Positions 1 through 15,545 of a DNA stretch of 64,000 nucleotides are shown one piece after another. The stretch is taken from the NCBI GenBank assembly GCA_038153405.1, contig JAYOYH010000010.1:31520-95519 (forward strand), in the 5' to 3' direction. This DNA comes from Gemmatimonadota bacterium. GTDB lineage: Bacteria; Latescibacterota; UBA2968; UBA8231. Position 1 is the stretch's first letter; each line of letters starts with the position of its first letter. The position numbers and the translations under genes are program-made. The notes beneath the pieces are model-generated. The model was not told the DNA's origin and made no database searches. It saw nothing but the letters and a program-made list of their open reading frames with translations.

Positions 1-1579
1 CGTAGTTGATATCGGCGGCGTCATTCTGCGTTCCCGCCAGGTACGCGCTGGTACTGTAGTCGGGATCTACGTTGTAGACTTCGCCAAAGGCGTAGTAGGG
101 ATAGGCGCGCTTGTAGACGTTGACGAACCAGGCGTCGGCCTGATTGTTGAAGGCGCGATGCTGGGTCACATCGCTTTCCGAACGGCGCGGATAGCGGAAG
201 TGCTGGCGGTTGCGGTCCCATTCGCCGGAGAGATAAAAACCGCCGACATCGCTCACGTCGATGGTCACGCCAAAAATCTCGTTGGCAACCGGCAGGCCGT
301 AGTTGACCCGTACGAACTGCTGGTTCGAACCGTCCTTGACGTTGCCGTCTGCACGCACGGTGCGCTCGGGGATGCCTTCGGACAGCAGCACCGGCTGGCC
401 GTTTGAGTTGAGCTGGCGGTTTGAGGTGACGTCGATTCGATAATCATTGGCCAGCAGTAACTGGAACTCTATGCTCTTAATCTGCTCGGGCTGTGGACCG
501 AATGAGTTGCGATATTCCGGCCCCTCGAGGTCGTAGACCAGGACGATGACCTCGTTGCCGTCGGCAGAGAGAAAACCCTCGCGGCGGAAGCCGCCCTGCA
601 CAGACGGATGAAAGTCGAGGATGTTGTTATCGCCCAAGCGGCGGCGGTTGCTGATCTTGCCGCCGTCGATCGTCGTTATGATCATCTCCTCCTGAAAGTA
701 GGCCGCACCCGCCTGGCCGTCCTCCGGCGAGTCATCGCTCAGGCGCACCTCAATGCGCGAGACGTCGGCGTTGTTCTGCCCTTCCGTCAGGGTGCCACCA
801 AAGGGATTGCCCTGAAAGGCCTGCCCCTTCGTTTGTGCGTTAAACGCGCTCAAATAGGTCGCACCGAGCTTTACAAAATCACCGATCTGCACGGTTCCTC
901 GCCCACCGACTAAGTTGGTGTCGTTGGAGCGCTCGCGCCCACCGCCGGTAGTGTTTCCCGTCGTGCTACCCGTGGCACCCGGTGAAGATGGACGAGAAGC
1001 GATAAACGTCGCCTCGTATTTATCCGTAGCCAAGTCCAACTGGATGCCTGCAAACGTCGGCTTGGAAAAGGTCATCGGCGTCAGCGTTGTGCGGATGCGA
1101 TCGCCAATGGTCAGCGCGTAGGCATACTGGCCTTTCTGATCGGAGGCAATGACCACGCCGGAAAACCAGCTGGTGAAGTTCGTAGTCTTGAACAGGTTGC
1201 TACCGGCCGTCTGCGGAGCAGAAATACGCCAGTCGTAAATGAGCTGTCCGCGCGTTATGTAGTTGCCGTACAGATCATAGAAGTAGAACCCTTCCTGCGT
1301 CGTGTTCACATACCGTTCATACTTGCGACGGGCGTAGTTGGTGTAGTCCTGCTGACGCCACTGGTACTCGTTGAAGAGCTCCTGCGGCACATACCACTTC
1401 TTCACCGCTGGATCCAACGCGTCAAACAACACACCCGAACCGTTCGGCTCATAGAATAGCTCGCCCCCGCGCCGGACGCCCAAACGCGAGCCAAAGTCTT
1501 CTTGTGCGAGCGCCGCATTGGCTTCTACTAACAGAACAGCAGCTGCTACAAACAGAAAAATACGTTTAGCGTTGTTCAC
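1..1579 (-). CDS. Large secreted hypothetical protein, 3' end truncated by the window edge; possibly an outer-membrane protein
   Basis: Absent from the ORF track because it has no stop in the window. Read by hand: GTG at 1579 after SD GGAGGG, signal peptide (NNAKRIFLFVAAAVLLVEANAALA-QEDFGSRLGVRRGGELFYEP...), open to the edge (>520 aa). Rich in Tyr/Phe/Trp alternating beta-strand-like segments. Confidence 0.85.
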   Translation of the reverse strand, partial: MNNAKRIFLFVAAAVLLVEANAALAQEDFGSRLGVRRGGELFYEPNGSGVLFDALDPAVKKWYVPQELFNEYQWRQQDYTNYARRKYERYVNTTQEGFYFYDLYGNYITRGQLIYDWRISAPQTAGSNLFKTTNFTSWFSGVVIASDQKGQYAYALTIGDRIRTTLTPMTFSKPTFAGIQLDLATDKYEATFIASRPSSPGATGSTTGNTTGGGRERSNDTNLVGGRGTVQIGDFVKLGATYLSAFNAQTKGQAFQGNPFGGTLTEGQNNADVSRIEVRLSDDSPEDGQAGAAYFQEEMIITTIDGGKISNRRRLGDNNILDFHPSVQGGFRREGFLSADGNEVIVLVYDLEGPEYRNSFGPQPEQIKSIEFQLLLANDYRIDVTSNRQLNSNGQPVLLSEGIPERTVRADGNVKDGSNQQFVRVNYGLPVANEIFGVTIDVSDVGGFYLSGEWDRNRQHFRYPRRSESDVTQHRAFNNQADAWFVNVYKRAYPYYAFGEVYNVDPDYSTSAYLAGTQNDAADINY

Positions 1580-1640
1580 GAAAACCCTCCCTTATTCACC
1601 AGCATTTGTCTGACAATCTATTCCAAATGCTCGAAGTACG

Positions 1641-4600
1641 TCAATATGCCACATTGACAATGCGCATCAGCTCGCTGTCGCCCTGATCGGCTTCAACGAT
1701 GATGCGGCAAATATACATACCCGGAGGCACCAACGCCCCCGACGCGTCGAGCCCGTTCCAGCGGAACTCCTGCGCACCAACCATCCCGGCCATACCGCTT
1801 CCCTGTCCGCGCCCCACCAAGCGCCCACTAAGGTCGAATATCTCCACACCTAGCGGACGCTCTTCCAACACTTTGAGCAGGGCGAAACGCACGACGAGTT
1901 CGTCGTTTATGCCATCGCCGTTCGGCGTAAATACAGCCGCCATATCAACGTCTTGAATGAGCGCATCACTCAGCGCCATTAGGCTGACGCGAGCCGTTGA
2001 GGATTCGACCAGTTCGGTAGCATCCTTTGACGACGTATCAACGCGCTGAAAAACGCCCTCTTCGCCGTTGGACGAACGGACGAAACTGCCAAACTCAATG
2101 CCTTCGCGGAAGCTCTGGGATTCAAACTGCACCTCGACAATGGCATGGCGTCCTCCCAACAAGTTTCCATTCACCGATTCGGGGAAGCGCACCCATAGCG
2201 AGTCGCTGCGCGTAGCCATAACCATGAGCGCCTCGCCCGCCTCGTTGCGAAAGGTGCCGTCGGCATCCCGACCATAAAACCGCGTGAAATCGGTCTGTAC
2301 GGCAGTCGTCAGGGAGGCCGTAGGATCGATGAGAGAGGCCTGTTCAGATACGGATACCGTTCCGACCCGCACGCCTTTCAACTCGGCAGCGAGTGGAGTG
2401 ACGATAAGAACTTCATTGAAGCCATCGCGCACCGTCACGTCAGCCGGATCCGGTGCAGCCGCTCGAATAAAGTACGAGAAGCTCTGCTGCGAAAGGGGAT
2501 CAACGCCCGTAGGCGCCACGTAATCGACGGGAAGCGAAAGGAGCTCCGTCACGGGACGGCCCTTACCCTCGTCCGTAAGCAGCGCTAGTTCGCCCGCTAG
2601 TTCTAACGACAGGGGCGGCGCCAAATCGACGCGCAGTTCGCGAACGCGGGCCGTCTTGAACGGTTCTTCGGAGGAAATATTAACGCGAATCTGCAAAAAC
2701 TTGCGCGGGTTAGGCGAGGTTATCGTCGCCTCGTTGCGCCCGTTGGTCGGCGCATACGACTCGCTCCACTCGCTCCAGCCGACAAAGGCCAGTTCGCCTT
2801 CGCTGTCGTAGGAAGAGCGCGGCTCGCGGCGGAGTTTCTTTCCGTCTTCGTCTACCAATCCATCGCCGTCGTTGTCGATCAGGTCGATGGGATCTTCATC
2901 CGTCACGCCATCGCCGTCGTCGTCGACGCGACTCTCGTGCCGTTTGTTGTCTGGCAAGGTCTGCCAGATATTCCATGCGGTCCACTCCAGCACCAGCGCA
3001 TCGTAGACTTCCTTTGCAACCTCCTGCCGCTCTTGGGCTCCGGCAATTTCGACCACTTCGTAGTAGGTGAAGTTGGTATCGGTTTGATCGGACGTGCGCG
3101 TTTGCACCTGCAGGCGCACGTCGGGATGGTTCTCCAACGGCTCAATCCGCTCGACGGTTTGCCCGGTAACCGGGTCGGTGTCGCGAATAATCACATCGCC
3201 TCCCCAGGCAATCTGCGGCAGCGTTTTGCGAATAAACTCCCCGCGCGCATCCGTCAGGGAGATCGGCGGCGAATAGGCCCAAACGCTAACGGGATACCCC
3301 TCCCCATAGAGTTGGATCTCGCCGAGGGTTGCCAGCGAACCATAGCGTCCCGACTGCTGCCCGGTCACGTCGATATCGCGCACCTGCAAAAAGCGGATTT
3401 TGCGCGGGGAAAACGTCTCGCGGAATATGCGCACGACTTGGTCGTGATTGTCCACGTGCTCGGCAGAAATAATGTTGTCCCACTTAAGCCCCTCTTCCAA
3501 CTGGGGAAAATCGTCGCGCTGTTGCATGCTGAGCGGCTTGAGCAGCGTGCCGTCTGACACCAAGATATCCGGGCCTAGGAAAGCGCCTAAATGGCTCTGG
3601 TTGATGCGCTTGTTAACCACGGAGACGTTATCCACCCAGAATACGGCACCCAAATCGTACCAGGCCGTTCCCTTAAGATAGATCGGAGACCACGTATTGG
3701 CCTGCCATTCGGAGTCGTAGAGCCCATCCGTGGCCAACTCGGGGGCTCCAAGGCCACCATTTTCATAGGAGGCGCCACCGCGCTTTTCCGGCTGCAGGGC
3801 GTAATTATCGCCCTTGGCCCACACCTGCACTTCGGAAATGCGCGGCACTTCACGGCTGTAATAGAGTATGGGACCGCGCTTGTCCTCCGACAGGGCTTCA
3901 AACTTAGCGCGAGCATTCAGGCCGTTTTCGTCGTCCTGCAGCTCCACGAGCAGGCCGCCCGCCGTCAGGCGCTGAAAGACCAGTGCACCTCTCTGTTCCG
4001 AGGGAAGTGCCTCGTACACCACCCGGCCCTCTTCCCCAGCCCCGAGGAACGCATCGCGCCACAAATCGGAATCGGTGACCTTAATGCGGATATACTGCAG
4101 AAACGTGCCGTCTATATCGGGCAGTCCATCCAAATCCCAGTCGGCGCGATCTAGCGGGCGGAGGGGAAAGGTCATCTGCACGTAGCGCCCGTCCGTGCCC
4201 GGCGTGGGGCGGAGCACGAGTTCGTTAACCTCTTCTCCTCCACCGCCCGAACACGAGGTGCCTCCGGCATAGCCTGCCGACTCATCGCGCACGCATTGAG
4301 CGATTTTTCCGGCGGCAAAGTTGGTCGCAACCTGTCCGACGAGCGAGAAGTTCAGGCTGTTACCCAGTGGAAAGGGAAAGCGCTCGCCCATGGACGCAAA
4401 AACGGCAAATGATTTCAGTGGTTCACCGAGAAATTCTTCTCCTACCTGGCCAGCCGGAAAAATAACCGTGACGCTGTCGACGTAAACCAAACGCCCTAGG
4501 TCGATTTCCAATTCCCACTTGCGCAACCCATCGACGGAAAACTCGTGCGTTTCGTCGAGGCGACGCTCGTAGTTGGAAGCAACGGAGGGTTCCCAGTAGG

Positions 4601-4982
4601 TCTCGAGATTGTCGTCAAGGATAGCTAAGGACCGGGTGTTATTGGATAAACTGCTGGCCCCACCGCTGACCACATCGCCGCCAGCGCGCACCAAATCCTT
4701 ATAGCTAAAGTTGGCTGCCGTAGGGCCGATGTTGATATTGCGCCGATAAAAGACCGGACGCATCCCCTCCGCATCGACCTGAAAGATGTCGGCGTCGGTA
4801 ATGGGCACGTTAAGCGAACCGACGAGGTCGTTTTGATAGCTCCAATTGAGCCAATGCGAAGCCCTATCGACTCGAATCGAGTTGCCAAATAGCCTGTAGG
4901 CGTCACCGACCTGAGACAGTGCAGGGACTGCCAACAGGACTCCTAGCAACACAGCGTGGCACACAGTCATCCGATTTTTCAT
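1641..4982 (-). CDS. Secreted 1113-aa protein with discoidin-like (DLG[RA]) modules, DxDxDG Ca-binding loops and a C-terminal FlgD-Ig / T9SS-type-B-like domain
   Basis: Signal peptide (VLLGVLLAVPALS-Q), SD AAGAGGA, IDLGR and YDLGA motifs, DDDGDGVTDED/DNDGDGLVDED, C-terminal FTPNGDGIND...IFDLSGRLV...WNGLD..G.LVPPGMY...VAY. Confidence 0.8.
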   Translation of the reverse strand: MKNRMTVCHAVLLGVLLAVPALSQVGDAYRLFGNSIRVDRASHWLNWSYQNDLVGSLNVPITDADIFQVDAEGMRPVFYRRNINIGPTAANFSYKDLVRAGGDVVSGGASSLSNNTRSLAILDDNLETYWEPSVASNYERRLDETHEFSVDGLRKWELEIDLGRLVYVDSVTVIFPAGQVGEEFLGEPLKSFAVFASMGERFPFPLGNSLNFSLVGQVATNFAAGKIAQCVRDESAGYAGGTSCSGGGGEEVNELVLRPTPGTDGRYVQMTFPLRPLDRADWDLDGLPDIDGTFLQYIRIKVTDSDLWRDAFLGAGEEGRVVYEALPSEQRGALVFQRLTAGGLLVELQDDENGLNARAKFEALSEDKRGPILYYSREVPRISEVQVWAKGDNYALQPEKRGGASYENGGLGAPELATDGLYDSEWQANTWSPIYLKGTAWYDLGAVFWVDNVSVVNKRINQSHLGAFLGPDILVSDGTLLKPLSMQQRDDFPQLEEGLKWDNIISAEHVDNHDQVVRIFRETFSPRKIRFLQVRDIDVTGQQSGRYGSLATLGEIQLYGEGYPVSVWAYSPPISLTDARGEFIRKTLPQIAWGGDVIIRDTDPVTGQTVERIEPLENHPDVRLQVQTRTSDQTDTNFTYYEVVEIAGAQERQEVAKEVYDALVLEWTAWNIWQTLPDNKRHESRVDDDGDGVTDEDPIDLIDNDGDGLVDEDGKKLRREPRSSYDSEGELAFVGWSEWSESYAPTNGRNEATITSPNPRKFLQIRVNISSEEPFKTARVRELRVDLAPPLSLELAGELALLTDEGKGRPVTELLSLPVDYVAPTGVDPLSQQSFSYFIRAAAPDPADVTVRDGFNEVLIVTPLAAELKGVRVGTVSVSEQASLIDPTASLTTAVQTDFTRFYGRDADGTFRNEAGEALMVMATRSDSLWVRFPESVNGNLLGGRHAIVEVQFESQSFREGIEFGSFVRSSNGEEGVFQRVDTSSKDATELVESSTARVSLMALSDALIQDVDMAAVFTPNGDGINDELVVRFALLKVLEERPLGVEIFDLSGRLVGRGQGSGMAGMVGAQEFRWNGLDASGALVPPGMYICRIIVEADQGDSELMRIVNVAY

Positions 4983-5039
4983 ACTCTATCCTCTTTGAGG
5001 AGCATTTCGCGCAGATCGTCGCAATGCGTTTCCCGCAGC

Positions 5040-7490
5040 TTAATAGGCGACGGAAATGAGTTTCGTTCTCGCCTCGCCCGCATCGTCCGCTTCCGTCGAC
5101 AGCCGCAATATGTATAGTCCTGGCGGCACCAGGCTGCCCATGTCGTCCCTTCCATCCCACTGTTCTGAATAGCCACCTGAGTTCAGCAAGCGCTCGATGA
5201 GGCGCAGGCGGTTCCCATTCAGATCGTATACCGCAAGCAGGACCGCGCGGGGCTCTAACAAGCGCTGGACGTCAAAGCGGACCTCTAACAGATCGTTGAC
5301 CCCGTCGCCGTTCGGTGTAAAAGGGTTGGGAGTCGTTTCGAAGTTCGCAACTAAATTGCTCCCCTGCGCCGAGATATCGGCGATAACCGCAAGCGAGTTG
5401 CGGTCGGAAAGCTGCTCTGTAGCATCAAAATCGATGACATCGCTGCCCTCGACCGGCTGCGGCAGAAAGAGAGCCAAGGTGTCGGCAGCTGCGCCCAACG
5501 TGAGGATTCCGTTATTGGTAAAGCGGCGATCGAAGCTCGATGCCAGCGTATCCAAGAACACGTTGGCCGCGAAGTTGGTGCGGAAGTCAATCACGCGCGC
5601 GCGGAAGTTGACTTTCACAACCGCCTCCCGATCCAGCCCATCGTCACCGGGGGCAATCGTCGGAAATCCGATCACAAATTGCTCGTCATCAACGAATAGC
5701 GCGCTGAACTGATCATCATCGAAATCGGGGTTTTCGCTGGCAGACAACATGCGCACATCGCCGGCACCCATATCGATTGACACAGATTGAATGTTTTCGA
5801 CGCGGGCAGGCGTGAAGACCTGCAGCCGATTGAAACCGTTGTTATTCGCTCCCAGGGACGCTCTAATCGCAATGGCGAAGGTCGTGTCTATACCAGCCTT
5901 GACGTCGACCGCGGGAGCGATCTCGCCGACCACGGCGTCGGTGATCTGCGGCGCCGAGTATTCAAAGCGCAGGTTGCGCACAATCGTCGCCGACTCCGAT
6001 GATAAACTTCTGAACTCAACATCGATCTGAATAAAGGGCCTACCACTCGGCGAGTTGATGAGCTGGCCATTGGTCACCTGCTGCACGCCGCTCCAGTACT
6101 CGAGATCCGGCTCAATTTTCCTGCGCAAGTTGCCGGGCAGCGCCTGATATTCGGCGCGCGTCAGACGAACGGATTCGCGCTCGTCGGGCAGCAGCGCGCT
6201 GAATATTTCGCGAACTTCTAGGTTGAACTGTGGGTCGTTCAAGTCGATCTGCTCGCCGCGCGTCTTCGATCCGGCGCGACGGTCCACTACAATAGCGTTT
6301 TCCGGCTTCCACTCGACCTGACGCTCGAATTCGTTGACGCGAAACAGCACATCCGGCTCGGCATTAACACCCGTCTGAATGCGCACGATGGCACTCGACT
6401 TGGTCGGGTCACCGACCTTATCCTCTTCCCAAAAAATGCGACCAAGGGTCGACGGCGGCAGCGGCAAGGCGATAGAGCGATAGGTCGCCTGCGGCACAAA
6501 GCCGTCGGCAAAGAATTCCATCTCGCCCAAATCATAGTCGAGTTCGGTCTGAAAGTCCATGCGCGCGTAGCGCATTTTGGCGGGCGGATCGAACGCCACC
6601 GCCACTGTGTCCTCGACGTTAACGGGCGCACTCTGCTCGGGAACAAAAGTGGGAAACGTCGGGGCAATTTTGGTGAATATGGGAAAGGCCAACTGACCGA
6701 CGGTCGGATCGTCCAAGCTCAAGCCGGCAATGACTTTTTCCGTGCCGGCAATACCCCGATAGAACGTGTAGGCAGAAATGCGAACGGGCGCCTCCGGACT
6801 GGGATATACCCGCATGAGGCGAATGGGAAAAAAGCGTCCGAGGTCGACATACAGCGTCCAGACCTGCTTGACGTCCTGCCCAACGCGGTCGATGCGCTCA
6901 AAGTGGGTAAGCGGATCGCCGTCAAATACGCGGCCCAATCCCTCTTGGAGCCGCTGTAAGGTCAGCGCACGCTCAAAAATACCCAGTGTCGTGAGATTGA
7001 GACCCTTATTGTATTTGTCTCCTCCCGGCGGGCGCGGAAACGACTCCGCTACGTTAATCAGCGCAGCGACCGTATCCACGCCGGCTAGGCGCAGCATCTG
7101 CACGTCTTCCAGCGACCGAGGAAAGTCACCCCAGCGCGAAATGAGCACATCACCAGCGGCCACGGAGCGATCGCCGAGGGTGGCATCCAGCTGCGCTACG
7201 ACTTCGGATCGGGCAACGTGTTGCGAAAATTCAAATAGAATGGAGTCAGCACCAGCGCTGCCCTCCTCAACCTGCGGGACAGGCACCATTTGCACCGGCT
7301 CGATCGGCGCAATCCCGTCGGGAACGCGTAGGAGATCGACGGCTTCGAGATAGCGCTGCTCGGAGATAGGTCCCTGTTTGGCATCAACCCAGGAGATATC
7401 TTGCGGAATGGAAAAGATCTTGAGTTCGGCAGGGCTTTCGCCCACCAGGCCCGCCAGCACTGCTACGGCGATACGCTTTGACCATCTCAT
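5040..7490 (-). CDS. Secreted protein with a C-terminal FlgD-Ig / T9SS-type-B-like domain; distant paralog of 1641-4982
   Basis: MRWSKRIAVAVLAGLVG signal peptide (in-frame alternative start at 7523), VDLGR motif, PNPFTPNGDGVND...VYDLNG...WDGRD..G.LVPPGLY...VAY. Confidence 0.8.
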   Translation of the reverse strand: MRWSKRIAVAVLAGLVGESPAELKIFSIPQDISWVDAKQGPISEQRYLEAVDLLRVPDGIAPIEPVQMVPVPQVEEGSAGADSILFEFSQHVARSEVVAQLDATLGDRSVAAGDVLISRWGDFPRSLEDVQMLRLAGVDTVAALINVAESFPRPPGGDKYNKGLNLTTLGIFERALTLQRLQEGLGRVFDGDPLTHFERIDRVGQDVKQVWTLYVDLGRFFPIRLMRVYPSPEAPVRISAYTFYRGIAGTEKVIAGLSLDDPTVGQLAFPIFTKIAPTFPTFVPEQSAPVNVEDTVAVAFDPPAKMRYARMDFQTELDYDLGEMEFFADGFVPQATYRSIALPLPPSTLGRIFWEEDKVGDPTKSSAIVRIQTGVNAEPDVLFRVNEFERQVEWKPENAIVVDRRAGSKTRGEQIDLNDPQFNLEVREIFSALLPDERESVRLTRAEYQALPGNLRRKIEPDLEYWSGVQQVTNGQLINSPSGRPFIQIDVEFRSLSSESATIVRNLRFEYSAPQITDAVVGEIAPAVDVKAGIDTTFAIAIRASLGANNNGFNRLQVFTPARVENIQSVSIDMGAGDVRMLSASENPDFDDDQFSALFVDDEQFVIGFPTIAPGDDGLDREAVVKVNFRARVIDFRTNFAANVFLDTLASSFDRRFTNNGILTLGAAADTLALFLPQPVEGSDVIDFDATEQLSDRNSLAVIADISAQGSNLVANFETTPNPFTPNGDGVNDLLEVRFDVQRLLEPRAVLLAVYDLNGNRLRLIERLLNSGGYSEQWDGRDDMGSLVPPGLYILRLSTEADDAGEARTKLISVAY

Positions 7491-7590
7491 TCCTTGGCTC
7501 TCCGGGTCAGATTCCTCATTCAATACGCGATAAAGGGCGAGATACTAAACGGCAGGAAGGTTAGAGCACGCGTTTGTCCTGAAAAACAGC

Positions 7591-7624
7591 GTTGAAGAGA
7601 GGGGGTTGCCCCCCTCTCTTCAAC
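7591..7624 (-). terminator. Intrinsic terminator-like hairpin after the 7655-8560 gene
   Basis: GTTGAAGAGAGGGG / CCCCTCTCTTCAAC 14-bp perfect inverted repeat; GCTGTTTTT follows on the minus strand. Confidence 0.75.
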
Positions 7625-7654
7625 GGGATATCACAGCGCATTGCAGCGCTTAAA

Positions 7655-8560
7655 TTACTCGACCGAGGCCTTGATACGACCCCAAGAATCGCTCTCAACA
7701 GCCGTGCCACCACCACCGGCACCGACCAAGCGACCATCGACGAAACGCTCAGCGTAACGCCAGGTAGCGGCCTGACCGGACAGGGTGTGGAACGCGCGGT
7801 AGTTGGAGGGCTCGATGTCGAAGTCAGGCACCGAAACCTGGAAGCCAATGATGCCACCGTCGACCAGGTTCGTGGCCTGGCTATCATCGGGGCTGTTCCA
7901 GATCAGGTCGTCAAACGGCGTGACGTAGAACTCGAAGATCGAGGTCGTCGGACCCTCGCCAACCGAGCCACCGCCGCCATCGGCATAGGGCAGCGCGTTG
8001 ACCCACTCGGCACCGGCGCCCTGATAACCGACGTGGCGGCCATCGGGGGTGTCGGCAATAGCGACATACTGCTGAGCGGTGCGGTTGTTGTTCAACAGCT
8101 TCTCGTCGTCGGTCCAGTTCTCGTCAGCCGAACCCGTGTAGTCACCACCGGTGTGGTCGCCGTCGAGCATGAACTCGATAGCGTCGTGACGCCAGAGCTG
8201 ACCGAGGTCGCCACCAGCATACTCGTTGATGTACACGTTATCAACGCGCTCCATGGCCATGTAGATGGTGCTGGAGTTGCCGTTCCAGCCTACCCAAATG
8301 CGGTAGTCGAGGTCGGCCGGATCATACTGGGCACCTTCGCCCACGGTCGGATCCTGGTAGAAATCAGTCGTGACGAGCGGAGCATCGCCAACGACGTCTT
8401 CCCAGTCAGCAACGCTGATATCGCGAATATCGATATCAGACAAATCCGAATCGGGAATTTCGTAGATCAGGTAAACAGATTCGCCTATGTGGGCGCTTGC
8501 GGTACCGCTCATGCCGCCAACGAGGCCGGCAACGATCAGAGAGAGTAGAGACTTTCTCAT
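7655..8560 (-). CDS. Secreted acidic protein, CBM9/DOMON-like sugar-binding-type fold, with C-terminal SWGRIK motif
   Basis: ATG 8560 with SD AAGGAG; signal peptide MRKSLLSLIVAGLVGGMSGTASA; VGWN...IYMAMERVDN, LWRHDAIEFMLDGD, IIGFQVSVPDFD resemble CBM9-like domains; ends GGGGTAVESDSWGRIKASVE. Confidence 0.7.
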   Translation of the reverse strand: MRKSLLSLIVAGLVGGMSGTASAHIGESVYLIYEIPDSDLSDIDIRDISVADWEDVVGDAPLVTTDFYQDPTVGEGAQYDPADLDYRIWVGWNGNSSTIYMAMERVDNVYINEYAGGDLGQLWRHDAIEFMLDGDHTGGDYTGSADENWTDDEKLLNNNRTAQQYVAIADTPDGRHVGYQGAGAEWVNALPYADGGGGSVGEGPTTSIFEFYVTPFDDLIWNSPDDSQATNLVDGGIIGFQVSVPDFDIEPSNYRAFHTLSGQAATWRYAERFVDGRLVGAGGGGTAVESDSWGRIKASVE

Positions 8561-8797
8561 TTGTTTGGACTCCTTCCAAAAGATCTTTTGAATCACACTG
8601 TACTCATACGTAAAGAAGGCTTCTGCGGCATCGATATGACACCGCATGAAAACTGAAAATACCGAAGCATTTTCAGGAAAATTTCAGTTCGCCATCACCT
8701 CCTTTCGCCGTGGAATGCGCAGAAAACAAAATGCGACCATCGCCCTTCTCTAAAGAGAGAACGCGATGGGAATGCGTTAGATAAAAAATTTCACCTT

Positions 8798-8826
8798 ATG
8801 ATATGTTAAAGTACAGCAGGTGTCAA
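8798..8826 (-). promoter_or_regulatory. Near-consensus sigma70 promoter for the secreted module
   Basis: TTGACA (8826-8821) - 17 nt - TATCAT (8803-8798). Confidence 0.8.
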
Positions 8827-8907
8827 GGCAAAACTGCCCTCGCCACACCCAGCCCTAAGGTAGTAGAAAATAATACGTTATGATTCGAATGGGGCAAATC
8901 AGTGCCT

Positions 8908-9765
8908 CTATTTATCTTCTTCCTGCTCATCCTGAGCCCGAAAGCGTATTTGTTTTACGTGGTGCATGCCAATGGAAAACGGGCCAGAAGGGGTCTTTCC
9001 CGTCAAGGCCGCATTGACGCGGTCGTAATAGCTCCTGTCGGTTTCCCCCGACAGGCGCACGGTGCTGGCATCGACAGTGCCCATCACCGTTCGCCCGTTC
9101 CAGTAGATGGCCGTGATGGGGCGAAACTCCTCGGCGGAGCCGCTGTCGTCGAAATCTATTTTGTCGACTTTGTCCAGGGGGATAAAACGCTTGTTGCGAC
9201 CGCGAAAAAAGTCGAGGCGCAGCTTGCCGCGAAAGCGCAGGTCTTCCACTTCGAAGCGCTTGCCCTCCAACGTGATGACGGTAGCCTTTAATACGGGCTC
9301 CTCGACGACCTCCTCGCCTTCGGGGTGCTGCAGGATGATTTCCTGCACATCGCTGACCAAGATGAAGAACGGCCCCAGCGATGTGACGCCCGTAAAGCGC
9401 CGGCCGCTGCTGCCTCCTCCAACTGCGTCCTGGTGCGGAGCTGCCCCACCACCGGTCAACATGAGGCCCCTCTCTTTCTTTCCAGACCGCATCGACAGAG
9501 ATACGGCCTGTTCCTCGTCTCTTCCCTCCCCTTCAAAGCGGATTCGATCGATCAGTACTAATTGCAGCATTCGCCGCTGATCGCCGATATAGACTTCGAT
9601 TTCTTGACGTCCCTGATACGCAAAGCGCTCTACCTTGTGCTGGTTACCATAGCGATCAATCACGATCGCCTGCGCGGCCCCTCCTTCGATAACGCCGCAC
9701 AGAGTGAGCAATAGACCGAGCAACACTATCAGGTGACTACGAGCCTGTTCACGTGTAGATTTCAT
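8908..9765 (-). CDS. Secreted hypothetical protein with two-fold internal repeat
   Basis: N-terminal hydrophobic signal; halves align (LVLIDRIRFEG / LDKVDKIDFDD; TGVTSLGPFFI / TGKTPSGPFSI). Confidence 0.75.
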   Translation of the reverse strand: MKSTREQARSHLIVLLGLLLTLCGVIEGGAAQAIVIDRYGNQHKVERFAYQGRQEIEVYIGDQRRMLQLVLIDRIRFEGEGRDEEQAVSLSMRSGKKERGLMLTGGGAAPHQDAVGGGSSGRRFTGVTSLGPFFILVSDVQEIILQHPEGEEVVEEPVLKATVITLEGKRFEVEDLRFRGKLRLDFFRGRNKRFIPLDKVDKIDFDDSGSAEEFRPITAIYWNGRTVMGTVDASTVRLSGETDRSYYDRVNAALTGKTPSGPFSIGMHHVKQIRFRAQDEQEEDK

Positions 9766-9789
9766 ACAGATCGCTCCGCGTTGAGTCTA

Positions 9790-10479
9790 TTATTGTTCGC
9801 CTTCGTCGGCCGCCCCTTCGCCGGGCTGTCCCGGAGTCGGCGGAGGTCCGATAATGATATTCTGCGTCTGGCCCATATTGACCTGCACCGGACGAATCTC
9901 ATCGCTGCCGCTGCTGGACAAGTTTTCAATGCGCACTTTGTACTCGCCGGTCGGCACGATAAAATACCGCACTTCGGTCGACGTCATGCCGCGCCCTAGA
10001 ACCGTGCGCAGATTGTAGTCATATATAAGAAAGGGCACCTGGCGACGCTCGCTGCCCTCAAAGAAGATGAGCTGAAAGCGCCCAATGGGAATGGTCGCAT
10101 ACACTTCCTGTCCCATATTGACCTGCACTTCCTTCTCCACGCTGTCCTCGACATCCGTATTGACCACGACCAAATAGGATCCCGGCGGCAGATCGACGTA
10201 CTGGGGAAAGGCGCCATAACCCGTTTCGTAGCCGACGGGCGAACTAGCCGCAGAGCGCGGCGAATCGGCATACACCTCTTCGCCCGTATCGTTATCAATG
10301 ACGTAGAAGTTGACCTCGTTGATTCCGCCCGCTTCCAACATGAGACGGCCCTTGCCCTCGGCAATCGGCGGTGGACCGTAGGCTGTGCCGCTACCGGTCG
10401 TGGCACAGCCTACCAACGCGACGAGCAGCGCAAAACAAGCGCAAAACCAAACCCTATTCCGCAACCATCCTGTAATCAT
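9790..10479 (-). CDS. Lipoprotein with two ~80-aa beta-sandwich-like repeats
   Basis: True start is probably ATG 10479 (SD GAGGAGG); lipobox LVG-C; VQVNMGQ occurs twice. Confidence 0.75.
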   Translation of the reverse strand: MITGWLRNRVWFCACFALLVALVGCATTGSGTAYGPPPIAEGKGRLMLEAGGINEVNFYVIDNDTGEEVYADSPRSAASSPVGYETGYGAFPQYVDLPPGSYLVVVNTDVEDSVEKEVQVNMGQEVYATIPIGRFQLIFFEGSERRQVPFLIYDYNLRTVLGRGMTSTEVRYFIVPTGEYKVRIENLSSSGSDEIRPVQVNMGQTQNIIIGPPPTPGQPGEGAADEGEQ

Positions 10480-10550
10480 TGTGCCTACCCTCCTCTGGCA
10501 TTTGAGCCAATAGCCCGTTAAGCGGCCAGACCGCAATGCCTTCATTGCTC

Positions 10551-12143
10551 CTAATGAACGCGCAGCGGCACTAGCGTGAAGTGACGCGATGCATCGGACT
10601 GGCTCTTCACATGAGAAAGAAACCTTTTCTCGTCTCTCCACAAGTGGGGATACGAAGCGGGGGTGGAAACCCCTCGCTCTACCAGCACGCGCCAGAATGC
10701 CTTGTCGCGCATGGCAAAGGCTGTGGCGACCAAGAAAAAGTCCGCGCCGGCTTCGGCCAAGCTGTCTAGGCGCGAAATGGAAAATGCGTCCGGCGTGAGC
10801 TGCCAGCCCTTGCGATGGCAATAGTATAACATGGTCGGACTCTGTGCGCGAAACGGCGCGCCGGCGTTTTCGTCCAGATCGCCAACGACTAGCAGGGCGT
10901 CGCTCGGCACCTTGGTATCGACGATCTTTCCCGCAGCAAAACAGCTCTCGTAGTAGGCGTGTAGATTATTGGGCTGTTCGTAGTAGGGGCTCAGCGCTCC
11001 GGCGCTGTGCGCCAGCGTTACGCCGCTCACAACGCCTAAGAAGACGACGCGCGGGACTGCGTTTCCGTTCCGCATCCAAGCGGCGCGGTGCATCCACTGG
11101 TAGAGCCAATCGACTCCGCGCGCAGCCAACAGCGCCCCGAACGGCACAAAGGGCAACTGGTAGTAGTGCAGCTTGCGATTGCCCTCTGGCACAAGTGCCA
11201 AATACAGCAACAGCCCCAATGCCCAACCCCACAGTCCCCAGGCATGCCGCGCCCTCTGCTTCCATAAGGCGAACGCACCCATCCCCAGCGCCGCGGCACC
11301 CACTGGCGTATAAACCACGTCGATAAAACGCCAGCCCATCTGTTTGTAAAAATCAATGGACCACAGCACGCTTCGATCCCACTTATCGTAGCCGTAGCGG
11401 TTCCAGATGCCAAACGTCAGGCCCGTCTCGGCAAACAAATCTGCCGCGTGCGCATACCACATCGCGGCGGGCAGCAGCACTGCTAGTGCATAGACCCATA
11501 GGGCAGGGCGCAAGAGAAATCGCCATCCCCAGCGCTCCAAAGCGAGCCCGACCAAGGCAAAGCCGAGGTACAGGGTGGGAATCTTAACCATGAAGCACAG
11601 CGCAGCGCTGGCAGCGGCACCCAAAGCGTACGGTAAACGCCCGCTCTCCGCCCAGCAATGGAACAGCAGCAGCGCCGCTACGCTCAGCAGGAGCATGAGC
11701 GGCTCGGGCATAAAAACGCGTCCGAAATATATGCTGAGCGGGGTGAAGAGAAAGAAGAATACTGCCCACAGAGCGACCCGTTCGTCGCCGAATATTCGCC
11801 GGGCAAAAACAAATAGCAGAAAGGCCGCTGCCAGCGAAAACAGGGCAGAGATCAGGCGTCCCAACCCTTCGTGGACGCCCCCGTAGACACCGTATACCGC
11901 GGCGACTATAAAAGGATACAGGGGAAAATTCATTTCTACGAAGCCGGGCGTATTGCCGCGCCAGTCGACCCGGGGGTAGAGCAGATCGTACCCCTCTTCG
12001 TAAAAGTTGCGCGCAATCGCCGCCGTATCCGTCTGGCGCCACGCCTGTTTGTCTATGAGGGGTTCGCCCATCTCGACGAGGCGCACAGCCAACCCCAACG
12101 CCAGCATCCCCAGCAGCCACAGCCGGGCGGTCTGCCTGGACAT
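10551..12143 (-). CDS. GT-C glycosyltransferase, family 39 / ArnT-like (PMT_2)
   Basis: WRQTDTAAIARNF, FPLYP, multiple TM helices, MPEPL motif. Confidence 0.8.
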   Translation of the reverse strand: MSRQTARLWLLGMLALGLAVRLVEMGEPLIDKQAWRQTDTAAIARNFYEEGYDLLYPRVDWRGNTPGFVEMNFPLYPFIVAAVYGVYGGVHEGLGRLISALFSLAAAFLLFVFARRIFGDERVALWAVFFFLFTPLSIYFGRVFMPEPLMLLLSVAALLLFHCWAESGRLPYALGAAASAALCFMVKIPTLYLGFALVGLALERWGWRFLLRPALWVYALAVLLPAAMWYAHAADLFAETGLTFGIWNRYGYDKWDRSVLWSIDFYKQMGWRFIDVVYTPVGAAALGMGAFALWKQRARHAWGLWGWALGLLLYLALVPEGNRKLHYYQLPFVPFGALLAARGVDWLYQWMHRAAWMRNGNAVPRVVFLGVVSGVTLAHSAGALSPYYEQPNNLHAYYESCFAAGKIVDTKVPSDALLVVGDLDENAGAPFRAQSPTMLYYCHRKGWQLTPDAFSISRLDSLAEAGADFFLVATAFAMRDKAFWRVLVERGVSTPASYPHLWRDEKRFLSHVKSQSDASRHFTLVPLRVH

Positions 12144-12150
12144 GAAGGCG

Positions 12151-13326
12151 TTAGAAGGGGCGCCAATGGGGAGACATATCGTCGCGGTCGTCGTTGTTCG
12201 TCAAGTTGACGGGCATACCAACGGGAGAGGGCAGATCATCCAAGTCAAAGCCGCGCGTCGATACGCGGTAAATGTCGTAGTCGTCTTCGTTCATCTTGCC
12301 CGCATAGGCAATCGACTTGCCATCACCCGACCACGTGGGCTCTTGCTCGTAGGTTTTTTCGGCGACGGAGATGCGCACCCGCGCACTGCCATCGGCATTC
12401 ATCAGCATCAACTCTTGGCCGCCAAACCGCTCTGAATTATAGGCGATGCGCTTGCCCAGCGGCCCCCAAGCGGCAAACCAATCGTATTTCTTATTGTCCG
12501 TCAGACGCACTCGATTCGAACCATCTACGGCGATGAGATAGAGCTCGTCATTGCTGTCAAAAACCGATGAAGTAAAGGCGATGAGTCGGCCATCGGGCGA
12601 CCACGAAGGTTCGCGCCCCTCGACCAGTTTGCGCTTATTGCCGCCATCGGCATCCATCAGCCAGATTGACTTATCGCCGTCGCGCTGGCTCTCAAAAGCG
12701 ATGGTCCGGCCATCGGGCGACCAGACCGCGCGCTGGTCGCGCTCGGCGTGCTCGGTCAAGCGCCGTCGATTCGAACCGTCTGCGTCCAACGCATAAATGT
12801 CGAAATTGGTCATCACATCGCCGCTGGTAAACAGGATCTGCTGGCCATCGGGCGACCAAGACGGGTGCTGCTCAAACTCGGGCGTATCGGTCAACTGGCG
12901 CCGCTCGGAGCCATCTGCGCGCATCGTAAAAAGGTCCCAGTTGCGCGCGCTCTGCGGGGTCGATGCATACAGGATAGTACCGGCCAGCGATTCGCCGGCA
13001 TTGCTCCCAGCCGGCACCTCAAAGGTGACCTTGTAGTCTTGGACCCCGCTCATTGGAGGCGCTTCCAACTCCAGCACCCGCGTATCCAGGTAGCTTCCAG
13101 CCGAGACGTTGACCACATACGTTCCGCTGCGCAACTCGGCGTCGCTGTCCGGACCGGGAAAGACGTAGGTTCCGGCCGATACCAAGTTGTTGAACTTGTA
13201 TTGCAGGTCGTTGGCATCTAAGCGCACGTGCTGCCCATCGCCGCCCTTCACCTCTATAGTAACCTGGTTTTTTCCACATGCGGCCAATAGAAAGACCGCT
13301 GCAAAAAGCGAAAAAACTATGCGCAT
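12151..13326 (-). CDS. Lipoprotein with TolB-like PD40 beta-propeller
   Basis: Lipobox LAA-C; repeated PSWSPDG/AVWSPDG and M.ADG..R.RL motifs. Confidence 0.85.
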   Translation of the reverse strand: MRIVFSLFAAVFLLAACGKNQVTIEVKGGDGQHVRLDANDLQYKFNNLVSAGTYVFPGPDSDAELRSGTYVVNVSAGSYLDTRVLELEAPPMSGVQDYKVTFEVPAGSNAGESLAGTILYASTPQSARNWDLFTMRADGSERRQLTDTPEFEQHPSWSPDGQQILFTSGDVMTNFDIYALDADGSNRRRLTEHAERDQRAVWSPDGRTIAFESQRDGDKSIWLMDADGGNKRKLVEGREPSWSPDGRLIAFTSSVFDSNDELYLIAVDGSNRVRLTDNKKYDWFAAWGPLGKRIAYNSERFGGQELMLMNADGSARVRISVAEKTYEQEPTWSGDGKSIAYAGKMNEDDYDIYRVSTRGFDLDDLPSPVGMPVNLTNNDDRDDMSPHWRPF

Positions 13327-13355
13327 ATATCCCTCCGCAACGTGTTGATATGCTC

Positions 13356-14036
13356 TCAATCCAATCCGCTGAGCCGGCGCAGGACTCCGTCCAACTCGTC
13401 AATGACGGCGGACAAATCGGCCATTCCCTGGGCTCGTATAGGTTTGCCAACGCGAAAAAAGACGCGCGAGCGCGGCCTGATATAGCTCTCGTATTCGATG
13501 CCAATGGGAACAATGGGCACTTCAATACCCCACCTTTCCTGCGTCCGCAATAGGTGCTCTACCACCTCCTTTTGCACGGGCCCCATACGGTCCTGGTAGC
13601 GCATGCCTTCGGGGTGGGAAATCACCAATTCGCCGTGCCTATACAGCCACGATAAATAGGCCTGCATATCGCTGTTGGCCTCTCGTGCACGCCGTATCGC
13701 TTCGCGCCGCTGCTCCCGATCCTTCAGCCGGCGCACATCTTTGGGGCGAGTGACCTTAACGCCGCCGGCCAGTTCCAGAATGCCCCACAAGCCGCGCTTC
13801 ATTACAAAGGTGGCAAAGCGACCCGTGTAGCGATACAGGGAAATCCCCTCGACGATAATATCCCGGTAGGCGTGGTGCTTGGGCAATAGCAGTCCTGCCC
13901 CTTCGCGCGGCAGGTTTTCGACGCCTTCGGCAACCACCTCGTGAAAGTGCAGCAACCCCGCACCGCACAAGCGCACGAGTTGGGCCAGCGCATCAATGCG
14001 CCGCAGGCTGAGGTCGTCGTCCCGCACTTCGCCCAT
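13356..14036 (-). CDS. Lysophospholipid / 1-acyl-glycerol-3-phosphate acyltransferase (PlsC family)
   Basis: VEGVENLP-like start (AEGVENLP), HX4D (HHAYRD), HPEGMR, VPIVPIGI. Confidence 0.85.
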   Translation of the reverse strand: MGEVRDDDLSLRRIDALAQLVRLCGAGLLHFHEVVAEGVENLPREGAGLLLPKHHAYRDIIVEGISLYRYTGRFATFVMKRGLWGILELAGGVKVTRPKDVRRLKDREQRREAIRRAREANSDMQAYLSWLYRHGELVISHPEGMRYQDRMGPVQKEVVEHLLRTQERWGIEVPIVPIGIEYESYIRPRSRVFFRVGKPIRAQGMADLSAVIDELDGVLRRLSGLD

Positions 14037-14044
14037 CGCAGCGC

Positions 14045-14527
14045 CTAGTGGAATAGTTCCTTGATTTTTCCCCAGGTGCTCTCGTCCACATCCGTGCTCA
14101 TATGGGCGCCAGACAGGGAACGCACGACGGGTTCCATATCGCTTCCACTGCCGTGGGAATGGATGCGCGCATCGGGGTAAACGAGCACGGCGTAGTCGCC
14201 GCTAGCGCCAGCCCGCTCGACGATGGAATCGGGGATAGCCCACTCGCCATCTATGGCTTTTGTGCGCGGCCAAACGACGCCGATTAAGTCAAAGGTATGT
14301 GCGGACGCGTTGGATATGTTCTGCCAGCTGGCCAGGCGCTCTACCTGTTGGAAGTGGTCTGGTGAGTACAAGTAGAACAGACGCAGAGTGCCATCGCCTG
14401 CCGGGCCATAGCCGCCTTCACCCGCAATCCCGCTGCCGACGAGGATAAAGCTCAAGCAACACAGCACCACACTTACCCTAGTCACAACCCACCTGCTTGC
14501 CACCTTGTTACTCGGCGCGAATCGCAT
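14045..14527 (-). CDS. Small secreted hypothetical protein with C-terminal TWGKIK motif
   Basis: Hydrophobic N-terminus; ends STDVDESTWGKIKELFH; start position uncertain. Confidence 0.65.
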   Translation of the reverse strand: MRFAPSNKVASRWVVTRVSVVLCCLSFILVGSGIAGEGGYGPAGDGTLRLFYLYSPDHFQQVERLASWQNISNASAHTFDLIGVVWPRTKAIDGEWAIPDSIVERAGASGDYAVLVYPDARIHSHGSGSDMEPVVRSLSGAHMSTDVDESTWGKIKELFH

Positions 14528-15545
14528 AATCCTTCTGTACCTCTTCCTGTCCTTCGAGAATGCGCACTAGAGACAAATGCGCGCTCAGCACCTGTTCGAT
14601 CTGCACCACGCCTACGCGGCGCGGAAGCGCCGTGCCCAGGACGGCACCCGTTTCTGGGTCCTTCAACTCTCGGCCGTGATCCCATACACCGTATTTGTTG
14701 CCGTTGGCCACCGAGTCAGCCAGACCGACGTTGATATAGGCGCGCGCGCCGTCGACGTCGATGATTTTTGGCCCGGACGAGACTTTGAGCTCCGCTGGCG
14801 GCTTGATGAGGCTATCCAGTCCGGCGGCCAACTGCAAGAGCTCCTTGCCGACCGATTTGCCCAGCAGTGTCTCGTGAAACTCCGGACTGCCCCACTCCAT
14901 TTGCCCCAGTAAAAAGTACTCTTTTTCCAGCGGGACATAGGCAGCCGGGTTCGTAATACCATAGCGCTTGCTATCTTCGACAGCTTCGCGTATCACCTCG
15001 CCTGCCGGCTGTCCGTCAATGACTTTATACGGGTAGAGGCGTATGCTGGTGAGCCCCTGATAGCTGCGGTATCCTCCAACGGGTACAGTCGCGCGAAAGC
15101 GCTTCATGCTCAGCTCATCGATCTCGCCCAAGACGACGAAGTCCGCCCCGACTCGCCGGCCCACTTCCAGTGCCCTATCGACGGAAATCCGCCCTTTTAG
15201 CTCTTTCTTATCCAGATGGACCAGCGCCGAATCGATGGGCAGCGTGCGAAAAAATTCACTGGCGTAGAGCGAATCGGCCAGGCCGCGCGGCAGCGCAGTG
15301 TAGATATCCCACTGCCCCTTGTATTTCGATTCGTCCTTAAAGGGCAGAAATAGCAGTGCCTGCGCCAGAGCGCTGGCGCTGTCTGTAGCCGCGCTAGAGG
15401 GCACAACAAAATCGGCTGCCGTCGCGCCGCCTTCCCCCGTCTTTTGCTTTGAGCCAACGCCCATGACCGGCACCGGCGACTCGCGGACCGAGGCGCAGCC
15501 CCAAACCAAACACCCCAGCAACAGCAGCATCGCCCTATGCTTCAT
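14508..15545 (-). CDS. Lipoprotein with TolB-N/CsgG-like domain and FlgT-like C-terminal domain
   Basis: Lipobox VWG-C; ALEVGRRVGADFVVLGEI; YINVGLADSVANGNKYGV...LKDPETGAVLG. Confidence 0.7.
   Translation of the reverse strand: MKHRAMLLLLGCLVWGCASVRESPVPVMGVGSKQKTGEGGATAADFVVPSSAATDSASALAQALLFLPFKDESKYKGQWDIYTALPRGLADSLYASEFFRTLPIDSALVHLDKKELKGRISVDRALEVGRRVGADFVVLGEIDELSMKRFRATVPVGGYRSYQGLTSIRLYPYKVIDGQPAGEVIREAVEDSKRYGITNPAAYVPLEKEYFLLGQMEWGSPEFHETLLGKSVGKELLQLAAGLDSLIKPPAELKVSSGPKIIDVDGARAYINVGLADSVANGNKYGVWDHGRELKDPETGAVLGTALPRRVGVVQIEQVLSAHLSLVRILEGQEEVQKDYAIRAE

Follow-up and report, generated by a model that had tools for sequence, protein, structure and literature searches.

We describe a C-terminal tail, shared by two secreted proteins of a Gemmatimonadota bacterium (Latescibacterota in the GTDB lineage), which is a real and uncatalogued C-terminal signal, together with an outer-membrane (OM) module, composed of a predicted beta-barrel and the lipoproteins LP1 and LP2, which is a new candidate for its reader, strong but purely correlative. 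Both proteins are encoded in the window that we analysed, a stretch of 64,000 nucleotides (assembly GCA_038153405.1, contig JAYOYH010000010.1, positions 31,520 to 95,519), and their tails lie at window positions 7655..7705 and 14045..14095. A preliminary description of this DNA had reported the two tail peptides and proposed that they are a sorting signal. Both are indeed encoded there on the minus strand, in frame, with a stop codon directly after and a Trp ninth from the end, and the bodies of the two proteins (330 and 160 amino acids, aa) are unrelated, with no match between them once the tails are removed. The reading that we prefer, and hold with about even confidence, is that the tail is a short docking tag read by this dedicated and uncatalogued module.

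In the genome assembly from which the window comes (4.86 Mb in 93 contigs, 93% complete, with 3,781 crudely called genes) the tail follows the consensus [TS]AVE-x2-[ST]W[GA]x[IVL]K, spans about 17 residues and terminates 20 signal-peptide proteins that belong to 12 unrelated groups. The core positions are the Trp, an Ile, Val or Leu at +3, a Lys at +4 and often a Phe or Leu at +7, and 2-15 variable residues separate the Lys from the stop. The expected restriction to C-termini was borne out by a proteome scan, in which a tuned pattern matched 20 of the 3,781 genes with the Trp always 7-20 residues from the end, although the final 20 residues hold 5% of all residues. The tuned pattern was derived from its own 20 members, so that it is circular for the count but not for the position; in 20 shuffles it matched 0-1 times. 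Without tuning, a six-frame search for [ST]W[GA]x[IVL]K returned 25 matches, 17 of them in open reading frames (ORFs) of at least 150 aa, and in 15 of these 17 the Trp lay no more than 20 residues before the stop. The motif is not due to chance. An iterated hidden Markov model (HMM) search recovered 19 clear members and a weak twentieth, and the tuned pattern finds no further gene among the 3,781. The predicted enrichment of signal peptides was also recovered, as under a crude rule 18 of the 20 carriers scored positive compared to 806 of 3,761 background genes (21%; p 1e-10). A signal-peptide-like stretch is present in all 20, of which 18 carry no extra transmembrane (TM) call by the same crude rule; the other two were scored as TM proteins, probably on account of an upstream false start that makes the signal peptide resemble a TM segment. 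A further secreted-looking protein (C1:85705-86382) has a tag-like core at its end and no leader, and was excluded from the 20.

The tail falls under no Pfam or NCBIfam model, which places it outside known families as had been proposed. LPXTG, PEP-CTERM and GlyGly-CTERM are likewise short C-terminal motifs on unrelated exported proteins, but the tag has no TM segment or basic tail and no NCBIfam hit, in agreement with the preliminary description, which had set it apart from all three. A literature search, with subscription papers and supplements outside its reach, brought up no account of either the motif or the module. The tail had further been described as an amphipathic helix, of which the helix stands, since AlphaFold2 models of the homologous tail on two lipoproteins are helical, and the amphipathicity has less support: the hydrophobic moment at 100 degrees (0.09-0.59) is weak and variable and often below the value at 170 degrees, with a mean hydrophobicity of -0.75 to 0.43 (Eisenberg-type scale). 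That the tag is an amphipathic helix which binds lipid and has no protein to read it would suit the modelled helix, and a pattern of Trp, aliphatic residue and Lys is typical of interfacial helices, but the weak moment, the near-invariant Trp and Lys and the tight co-occurrence with specific proteins described below make this reading very unlikely. We regard a periplasmic protease-recognition or turnover signal as highly improbable: tail-specific proteases do read short extreme C-terminal motifs, but the last residues of the tag vary, internal tandem copies exist and a type IX secretion system (T9SS) C-terminal domain (CTD) can take its place.

The genome also encodes a T9SS, including SprA, PorU above cut-off beside a PorV-family gene, and at least seven PorV-family genes above cut-off, together with CTD proteins, approximately 44 of type A and 41 of type B. 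The start of the tag had been likened to the linker that precedes T9SS CTDs, and this holds for type A but not for type B, given that a leader [TS][AS][VI] is found in 17 of the 20 tags, 24 of the 44 type A CTDs (a loose rule, with a few type A matches off-register) and none of the 41 type B CTDs. PorU cuts ahead of the CTD with low specificity, at small and polar residues, according to PMC5445135, so that by analogy cleavage at the tag leader would be plausible. The resemblance to the type A CTD (TIGR04183, PF18962; PorV shuttle, PorU sortase) extends to the combination of an N-terminal signal peptide with a C-terminal signal on unrelated passengers, to the interchange of tag and CTD in one homologue and to hosts that encode SprA, PorU and PorV-family genes. 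However, the tag is one predicted helix of about 17 residues, whereas the CTD is an immunoglobulin (Ig)-like domain of about 70-80 residues, and the tagged passengers of this genome are smaller (median 316 aa, maximum 416) than its type A CTD proteins (median 900 aa). The tagged proteins scanned gave no TIGR04183, PF18962 or PF13860 match, no Ig-like CTD and no CHU_C match.

These likenesses raise the alternative that the tag is a minimal T9SS signal for SprA or a PorV paralogue, with the barrel, LP1 and LP2 acting as T9SS shuttle or clients in lineages without a gliding motor. The leader shared with type A and not type B CTDs, the single tag-to-CTD swap among 120 homologues, the T9SS gene set of the genome and the 4 loci of 21 in which a propeller-CTD gene and two PorV-like genes precede the LP genes all speak for it, as does the GldM model, which by one query had no match in any of four tag-positive genomes and did match the one tag-negative genome tested. 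We nevertheless consider it unlikely, as the tag has no Ig-like CTD and is missing from many genomes that are SprA-positive, tracking another barrel and two lipoproteins instead. Two other observations concern the T9SS of this genome. A second C25 peptidase (C48:5701-11277; 1,858 aa) resembles the PorU and PorU2 models but scores below both cut-offs, and at C85:8437-14676, beside a tagged LTD protein, a PorV-like gene is followed by a 1,079-aa protein and genes that by eye are ExbB/ExbD-like, a cluster that might supply energy to a T9SS without a GldM match.

The distribution of the tag was followed in a sample of 121 genomes from the same phylum, in which f1 denotes the family of our genome and f2-f4 families of the same class. 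Under a strict DNA pattern all 44 genomes of f1 were positive, with 4-77 copies each (0-1 in the reversed control), as were most genomes of seven further families (f5, f6, f7, f9, f11, f12 and f13). In f2-f4 the pattern gave single copies only, in 12 of 48 genomes; those of f3 have an Arg before the Trp in place of Ser/Thr, and the tail HMM found no C-terminal tag in any of the five f2-f4 genomes checked. In f8, f10 and f14 the same HMM detected one tag each in G004, G010 and G006, at least six in G015 and none in G012. A scan of species genomes yielded at least 123 stretches in which a true stop codon follows the motif, as the pattern largely demands; among the 80 listed, Eisenbacteria, Krumholzibacteria and Latescibacterota have varied passengers, while Ignavibacteria, Rhodothermia, Calditrichia, KSB1, Marinimicrobia and Zixibacteria have one small conserved protein. 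A 31-column tail profile, which is too short, gave 28 matches against 1.84 billion representatives, comprising 24 tags near the end, three repeat artefacts and one internal copy.

The tag occurs almost only where the barrel and LP1/LP2 occur. In the phylum of our genome, LP genes were found in 15 of 15 genomes of f1, in 13 of 13 of the other families with the profile and in none of 21 in f2-f4, and the barrel in 10 of 10, 22 of 24 and none of 18, respectively (0/5 in f2-f4 by a second profile). SprA was nevertheless present in 21 of 21 f2-f4 genomes, and three that were tested had 11-15 PorV-family matches each as well as type A CTD genes. Among 80 genomes of a second phylum (that of G125) the sets were nested, with SprA in 63, the LP pair and the barrel in one identical set of 32, and the tag in 29, all of which have LP and barrel; 31 SprA-positive genomes lack all three. 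The 29 tag matches are putatively terminal: they extend to the final model column, in reading frames of 130-290 aa. The barrel was also present in 28 of 28 tag-positive genomes of other phyla, and of 50 tag-positive genomes from the species scan 46 had LP genes and 46 had the SprA domain, with two of the four SprA misses positive by protein query. The retention of SprA in f2-f4 and in the 31 second-phylum genomes without barrel, LP or tag means that the T9SS alone does not explain the tag, and as a sufficient explanation it was rejected, SprA being present in 61 of 62 genomes of the phylum whatever their tag status; PorV-family copy number was also rejected as a correlate, as it does not separate tag-positive from tag-negative genomes. 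One genome of f14 (G015; 96% complete, 60 contigs) combines its tagged proteins with the barrel, several LP genes and no SprA by two queries. The preliminary description had pointed to the CTD proteins and barrel near the tagged genes as possible docking partners; profiling favours a barrel and two lipoproteins encoded on other contigs, and those of the window are not the best candidates.

Several points weigh against a dedicated reader that is separate from the T9SS. All 32 module-positive genomes of the second phylum have SprA, and G015, the sole module-positive genome found without it, still has 12 PorV-family matches. No tag was seen in 3 of these 32 genomes or in G012, no LP gene in 4 of the 50 tag-positive genomes and no barrel in 2 of the 24 genomes from tag lineages of our phylum, while two f2 genomes (G040 and G062) have single strict-pattern matches known at pattern level only. 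The absence from f2-f4 is probably one loss, and the counts of the 80-genome set take no account of kinship; the correlation rests on few independent lineages and may reflect as few as two events. Furthermore, two NTF2 lipoproteins of the LP family carry four and five tandem tag copies about 20 residues apart, from which it follows that a free C-terminus is dispensable for some copies.

The candidate, a predicted OM barrel, is approximately 650 aa long (600-750 aa across loci) and is single-copy. In our genome it is encoded at C55:13283-15253 behind rsmA, which adjoins the barrel gene in 21 of 45 barrel loci, and the order rsmA-barrel-LP1-LP2 is found in 10 of 21 wide LP loci. Seventeen barrels gave no Pfam match, and there was no NCBIfam or PDB sequence match and no match to PorP or PorV models; by language-model features the nearest Atlas cluster is one automatically named outer-membrane beta-barrel. 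A count of 22-31 strand segments is rough and has no control. By the same kind of features the nearest named clusters are SlipAM and BBP2_2 (score 0.92-0.93), with SlipAM annotated on 10-19% of their members. Slam, or type XI secretion (PF04575 SlipAM), uses an OM barrel to export small Sec-dependent proteins, and in this respect it is comparable to the proposed module, but the candidate barrel is larger, lacks a Pfam match and is linked to NTF2 lipoproteins. LptD was tried as an identity for the barrel and rejected, as LptD (PF19838) is a separate gene in five of five genomes and the candidate barrel does not match it. The LptD/LptE complex and the expanded Bacteroidota lipopolysaccharide translocon, as outlined in bioRxiv 10.64898/2026.10.03.756453, resemble the proposed module in having a large barrel and lipoprotein partners, and can export surface proteins; the term NTF2 is absent from the main text of that paper. 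Another parallel is the type B CTD, a C-terminal signal class with its own barrel partner, served by dedicated PorP/SprF shuttles according to PMC12618676, and tagged CBM9-like genes often adjoin type B CTD genes. The type B CTDs of our genome, however, have no TAV leader, and the candidate barrel differs from PorP, given as 35 kDa in PMC5445135, in being single-copy and about twice that size.

LP1 and LP2 surfaced in a looser scan as two lipoprotein genes with tag-like ends on contig C31. They are paralogues (hhalign, 99.3%) and have an NTF2-like fold (LP2, Foldseek E 7e-07; LP1, VIA-align Z 14.1, rmsd 2.2, 123 aligned), and apart from weak NTF2-clan hits neither has a family match. In 61 of 63 rows labelled LP1 the protein ends in [ST]W[GS]xL[KR], 6-10 residues past the last strand, and this terminal segment is modelled as a helix (AlphaFold2, pLDDT 92-94), while LP2 usually terminates at the last strand without a tag-like helix. 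A quick tree of the LP cores separates LP1 from LP2 (SH-aLRT 98), groups with LP1 eight rows that the regular-expression labels had misfiled, and places tailed LP2s in three separate subclades, in each of which LP2 has gained or retained a linker and tag. In our genome LP1 and LP2 lie in an operon (C31:15660-21616) with a CTD-bearing propeller protein, two genes of the PorV/PorQ family, an M50 peptidase and a divergent polysaccharide deacetylase, the last of which accompanies LP genes in 12 of the 21 wide loci. The M50 peptidase was rejected as a general processing enzyme, being present in 2 of the 21, both from our own phylum.

The tandem copies on LP-family proteins, the integral copy on LP1 and the existence of single small proteins that are conserved in the tail only would all be expected if the tag were a tether of the dockerin kind that stays uncleaved and keeps folded proteins attached to an LP/barrel scaffold, in the periplasm or at the surface, with no translocation. 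We judge this quite unlikely, as the junction ahead of the tag resembles that of type A CTDs, a CTD can replace the tag, and strict co-occurrence of the tag with so large a barrel points to passage across a membrane. Under the docking-tag reading that we prefer, the passenger would first be exported by Sec and then fold, after which the tag helix would dock in a site provided by LP2 or the barrel. The terminal helix of LP1 would serve as a built-in ligand of, or plug for, such a site, leaving LP2 or the barrel with an open one, and the small passenger would then be passed through, or retained at, the outer membrane. The module would probably operate beside the T9SS, and a PorU-type enzyme could process tagged proteins at the shared TAV leader, in the way that it cleaves ahead of type A CTDs. 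It is possible, and here we are more tentative, that the barrel, LP1 and LP2 constitute an independent and undescribed OM secretion system of about ten FCB-group lineages that exports small folded proteins by helix exchange, the tag displacing the matching terminal helix of the lipoprotein plug.

The 12 carrier groups of our genome include CBM9-like, fasciclin, YHYH, FGE-sulfatase, LTXXQ, temptin and LTD proteins, a weak metallopeptidase match and others without a family. In other phyla some passengers exceed 490 aa and run past the edge of the locus, so that these lengths are lower bounds. Ignavibacteria, Rhodothermia, Calditrichia, KSB1, Marinimicrobia and others have one secreted protein of 130-145 aa per genome, consisting of one FN3/Ig-like domain with a tail that hardly varies (TWG[SAG]IKA[MLI]F[RQK]), and Zixibacteria-type genomes have the same tail on a different small body. 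The gene neighbours of this small protein, in Ignavibacteria and others, are housekeeping genes with no common partner; our genome has no copy of it, and the same domain type occurs there inside other proteins.

Of the two tagged proteins in the window, the larger (7655..8647, minus strand, as are the other genes of this region listed here) is an exported CBM9-like protein, one of eight tagged paralogues, in which the tag (TAVE leader and SWGRIK core) stands behind a Gly-rich linker. Translation of this 330-aa ORF more likely starts at the Met at 8560, after which comes a stretch resembling a signal peptide. The Pfam CBM9_1 cut-off is reached by three paralogues, and the window protein itself has no hit. 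The tag is conserved in 118 of its 120 listed homologues; of the other two, one is fragmentary and the second (P0037, 69% identity) carries an additional domain and, in place of the tag, a T9SS CTD of type A. The small exported protein (160-aa ORF, 14045..14527) was matched in 19 of 39 genomes searched; its body diverges fast, with approximately 30-40% identity even within a genus, and its tail is retained and nearly invariant, reading T[ED][IV]DESTWGK[IV]K[ED]LF in most orthologues. In 16 of the 19 loci it adjoins a lipoprotein-like gene (14508..15545, 345 aa), a pairing that spans families f1, f7, f9 and f11, and the only Pfam trace in the 345-aa protein is a weak LpoB match below cut-off.

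Three neighbouring genes are context outside the tag system. Directly downstream of the tagged CBM9-like gene lies a type B (CHU_C) T9SS CTD protein (5040..7523), followed in the same cassette by a second type B-like CTD protein (1641..4982) and the N-terminal part of a 917-aa protein (2..1579), one of 16 similar proteins of about 900 aa that terminate in [YFN]AG[LVF], many of which adjoin type B CTD genes. Cassettes like that at window positions 2-8647, in which an approximately 900-aa protein is accompanied by type B CTD proteins and frequently by a tagged CBM9-like gene, recur on C3, C4, C5, C6, C10, C35 and C79. The part of the 917-aa protein that was scanned has no Pfam or NCBIfam family match, and proteins of this kind could serve as the type B CTD shuttle of this lineage. 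A 983-aa protein on the plus strand (19881-22832) looks by eye like a duplicated flagellar assembly protein of the FapA/DUF342 type.

The module is also present in Rhodothermia and Ignavibacteria, with one tagged protein each and including at least one isolate genome (Roseithermus), which opens the idea to experiment. The tag system bears on T9SS-like function in genomes where the gliding motor was not found and, if the module is an independent secretion system as in the more tentative reading above, would give lineages apparently without that motor another path of export next to the T9SS. A signal of 17 residues and a reader of three genes would be a far simpler route for export or display than the T9SS with its approximately 20 components, and surface proteomes would become predictable for abundant uncultured lineages (Latescibacterota, Eisenbacteria and Krumholzibacteriota) with dozens of tagged genes.

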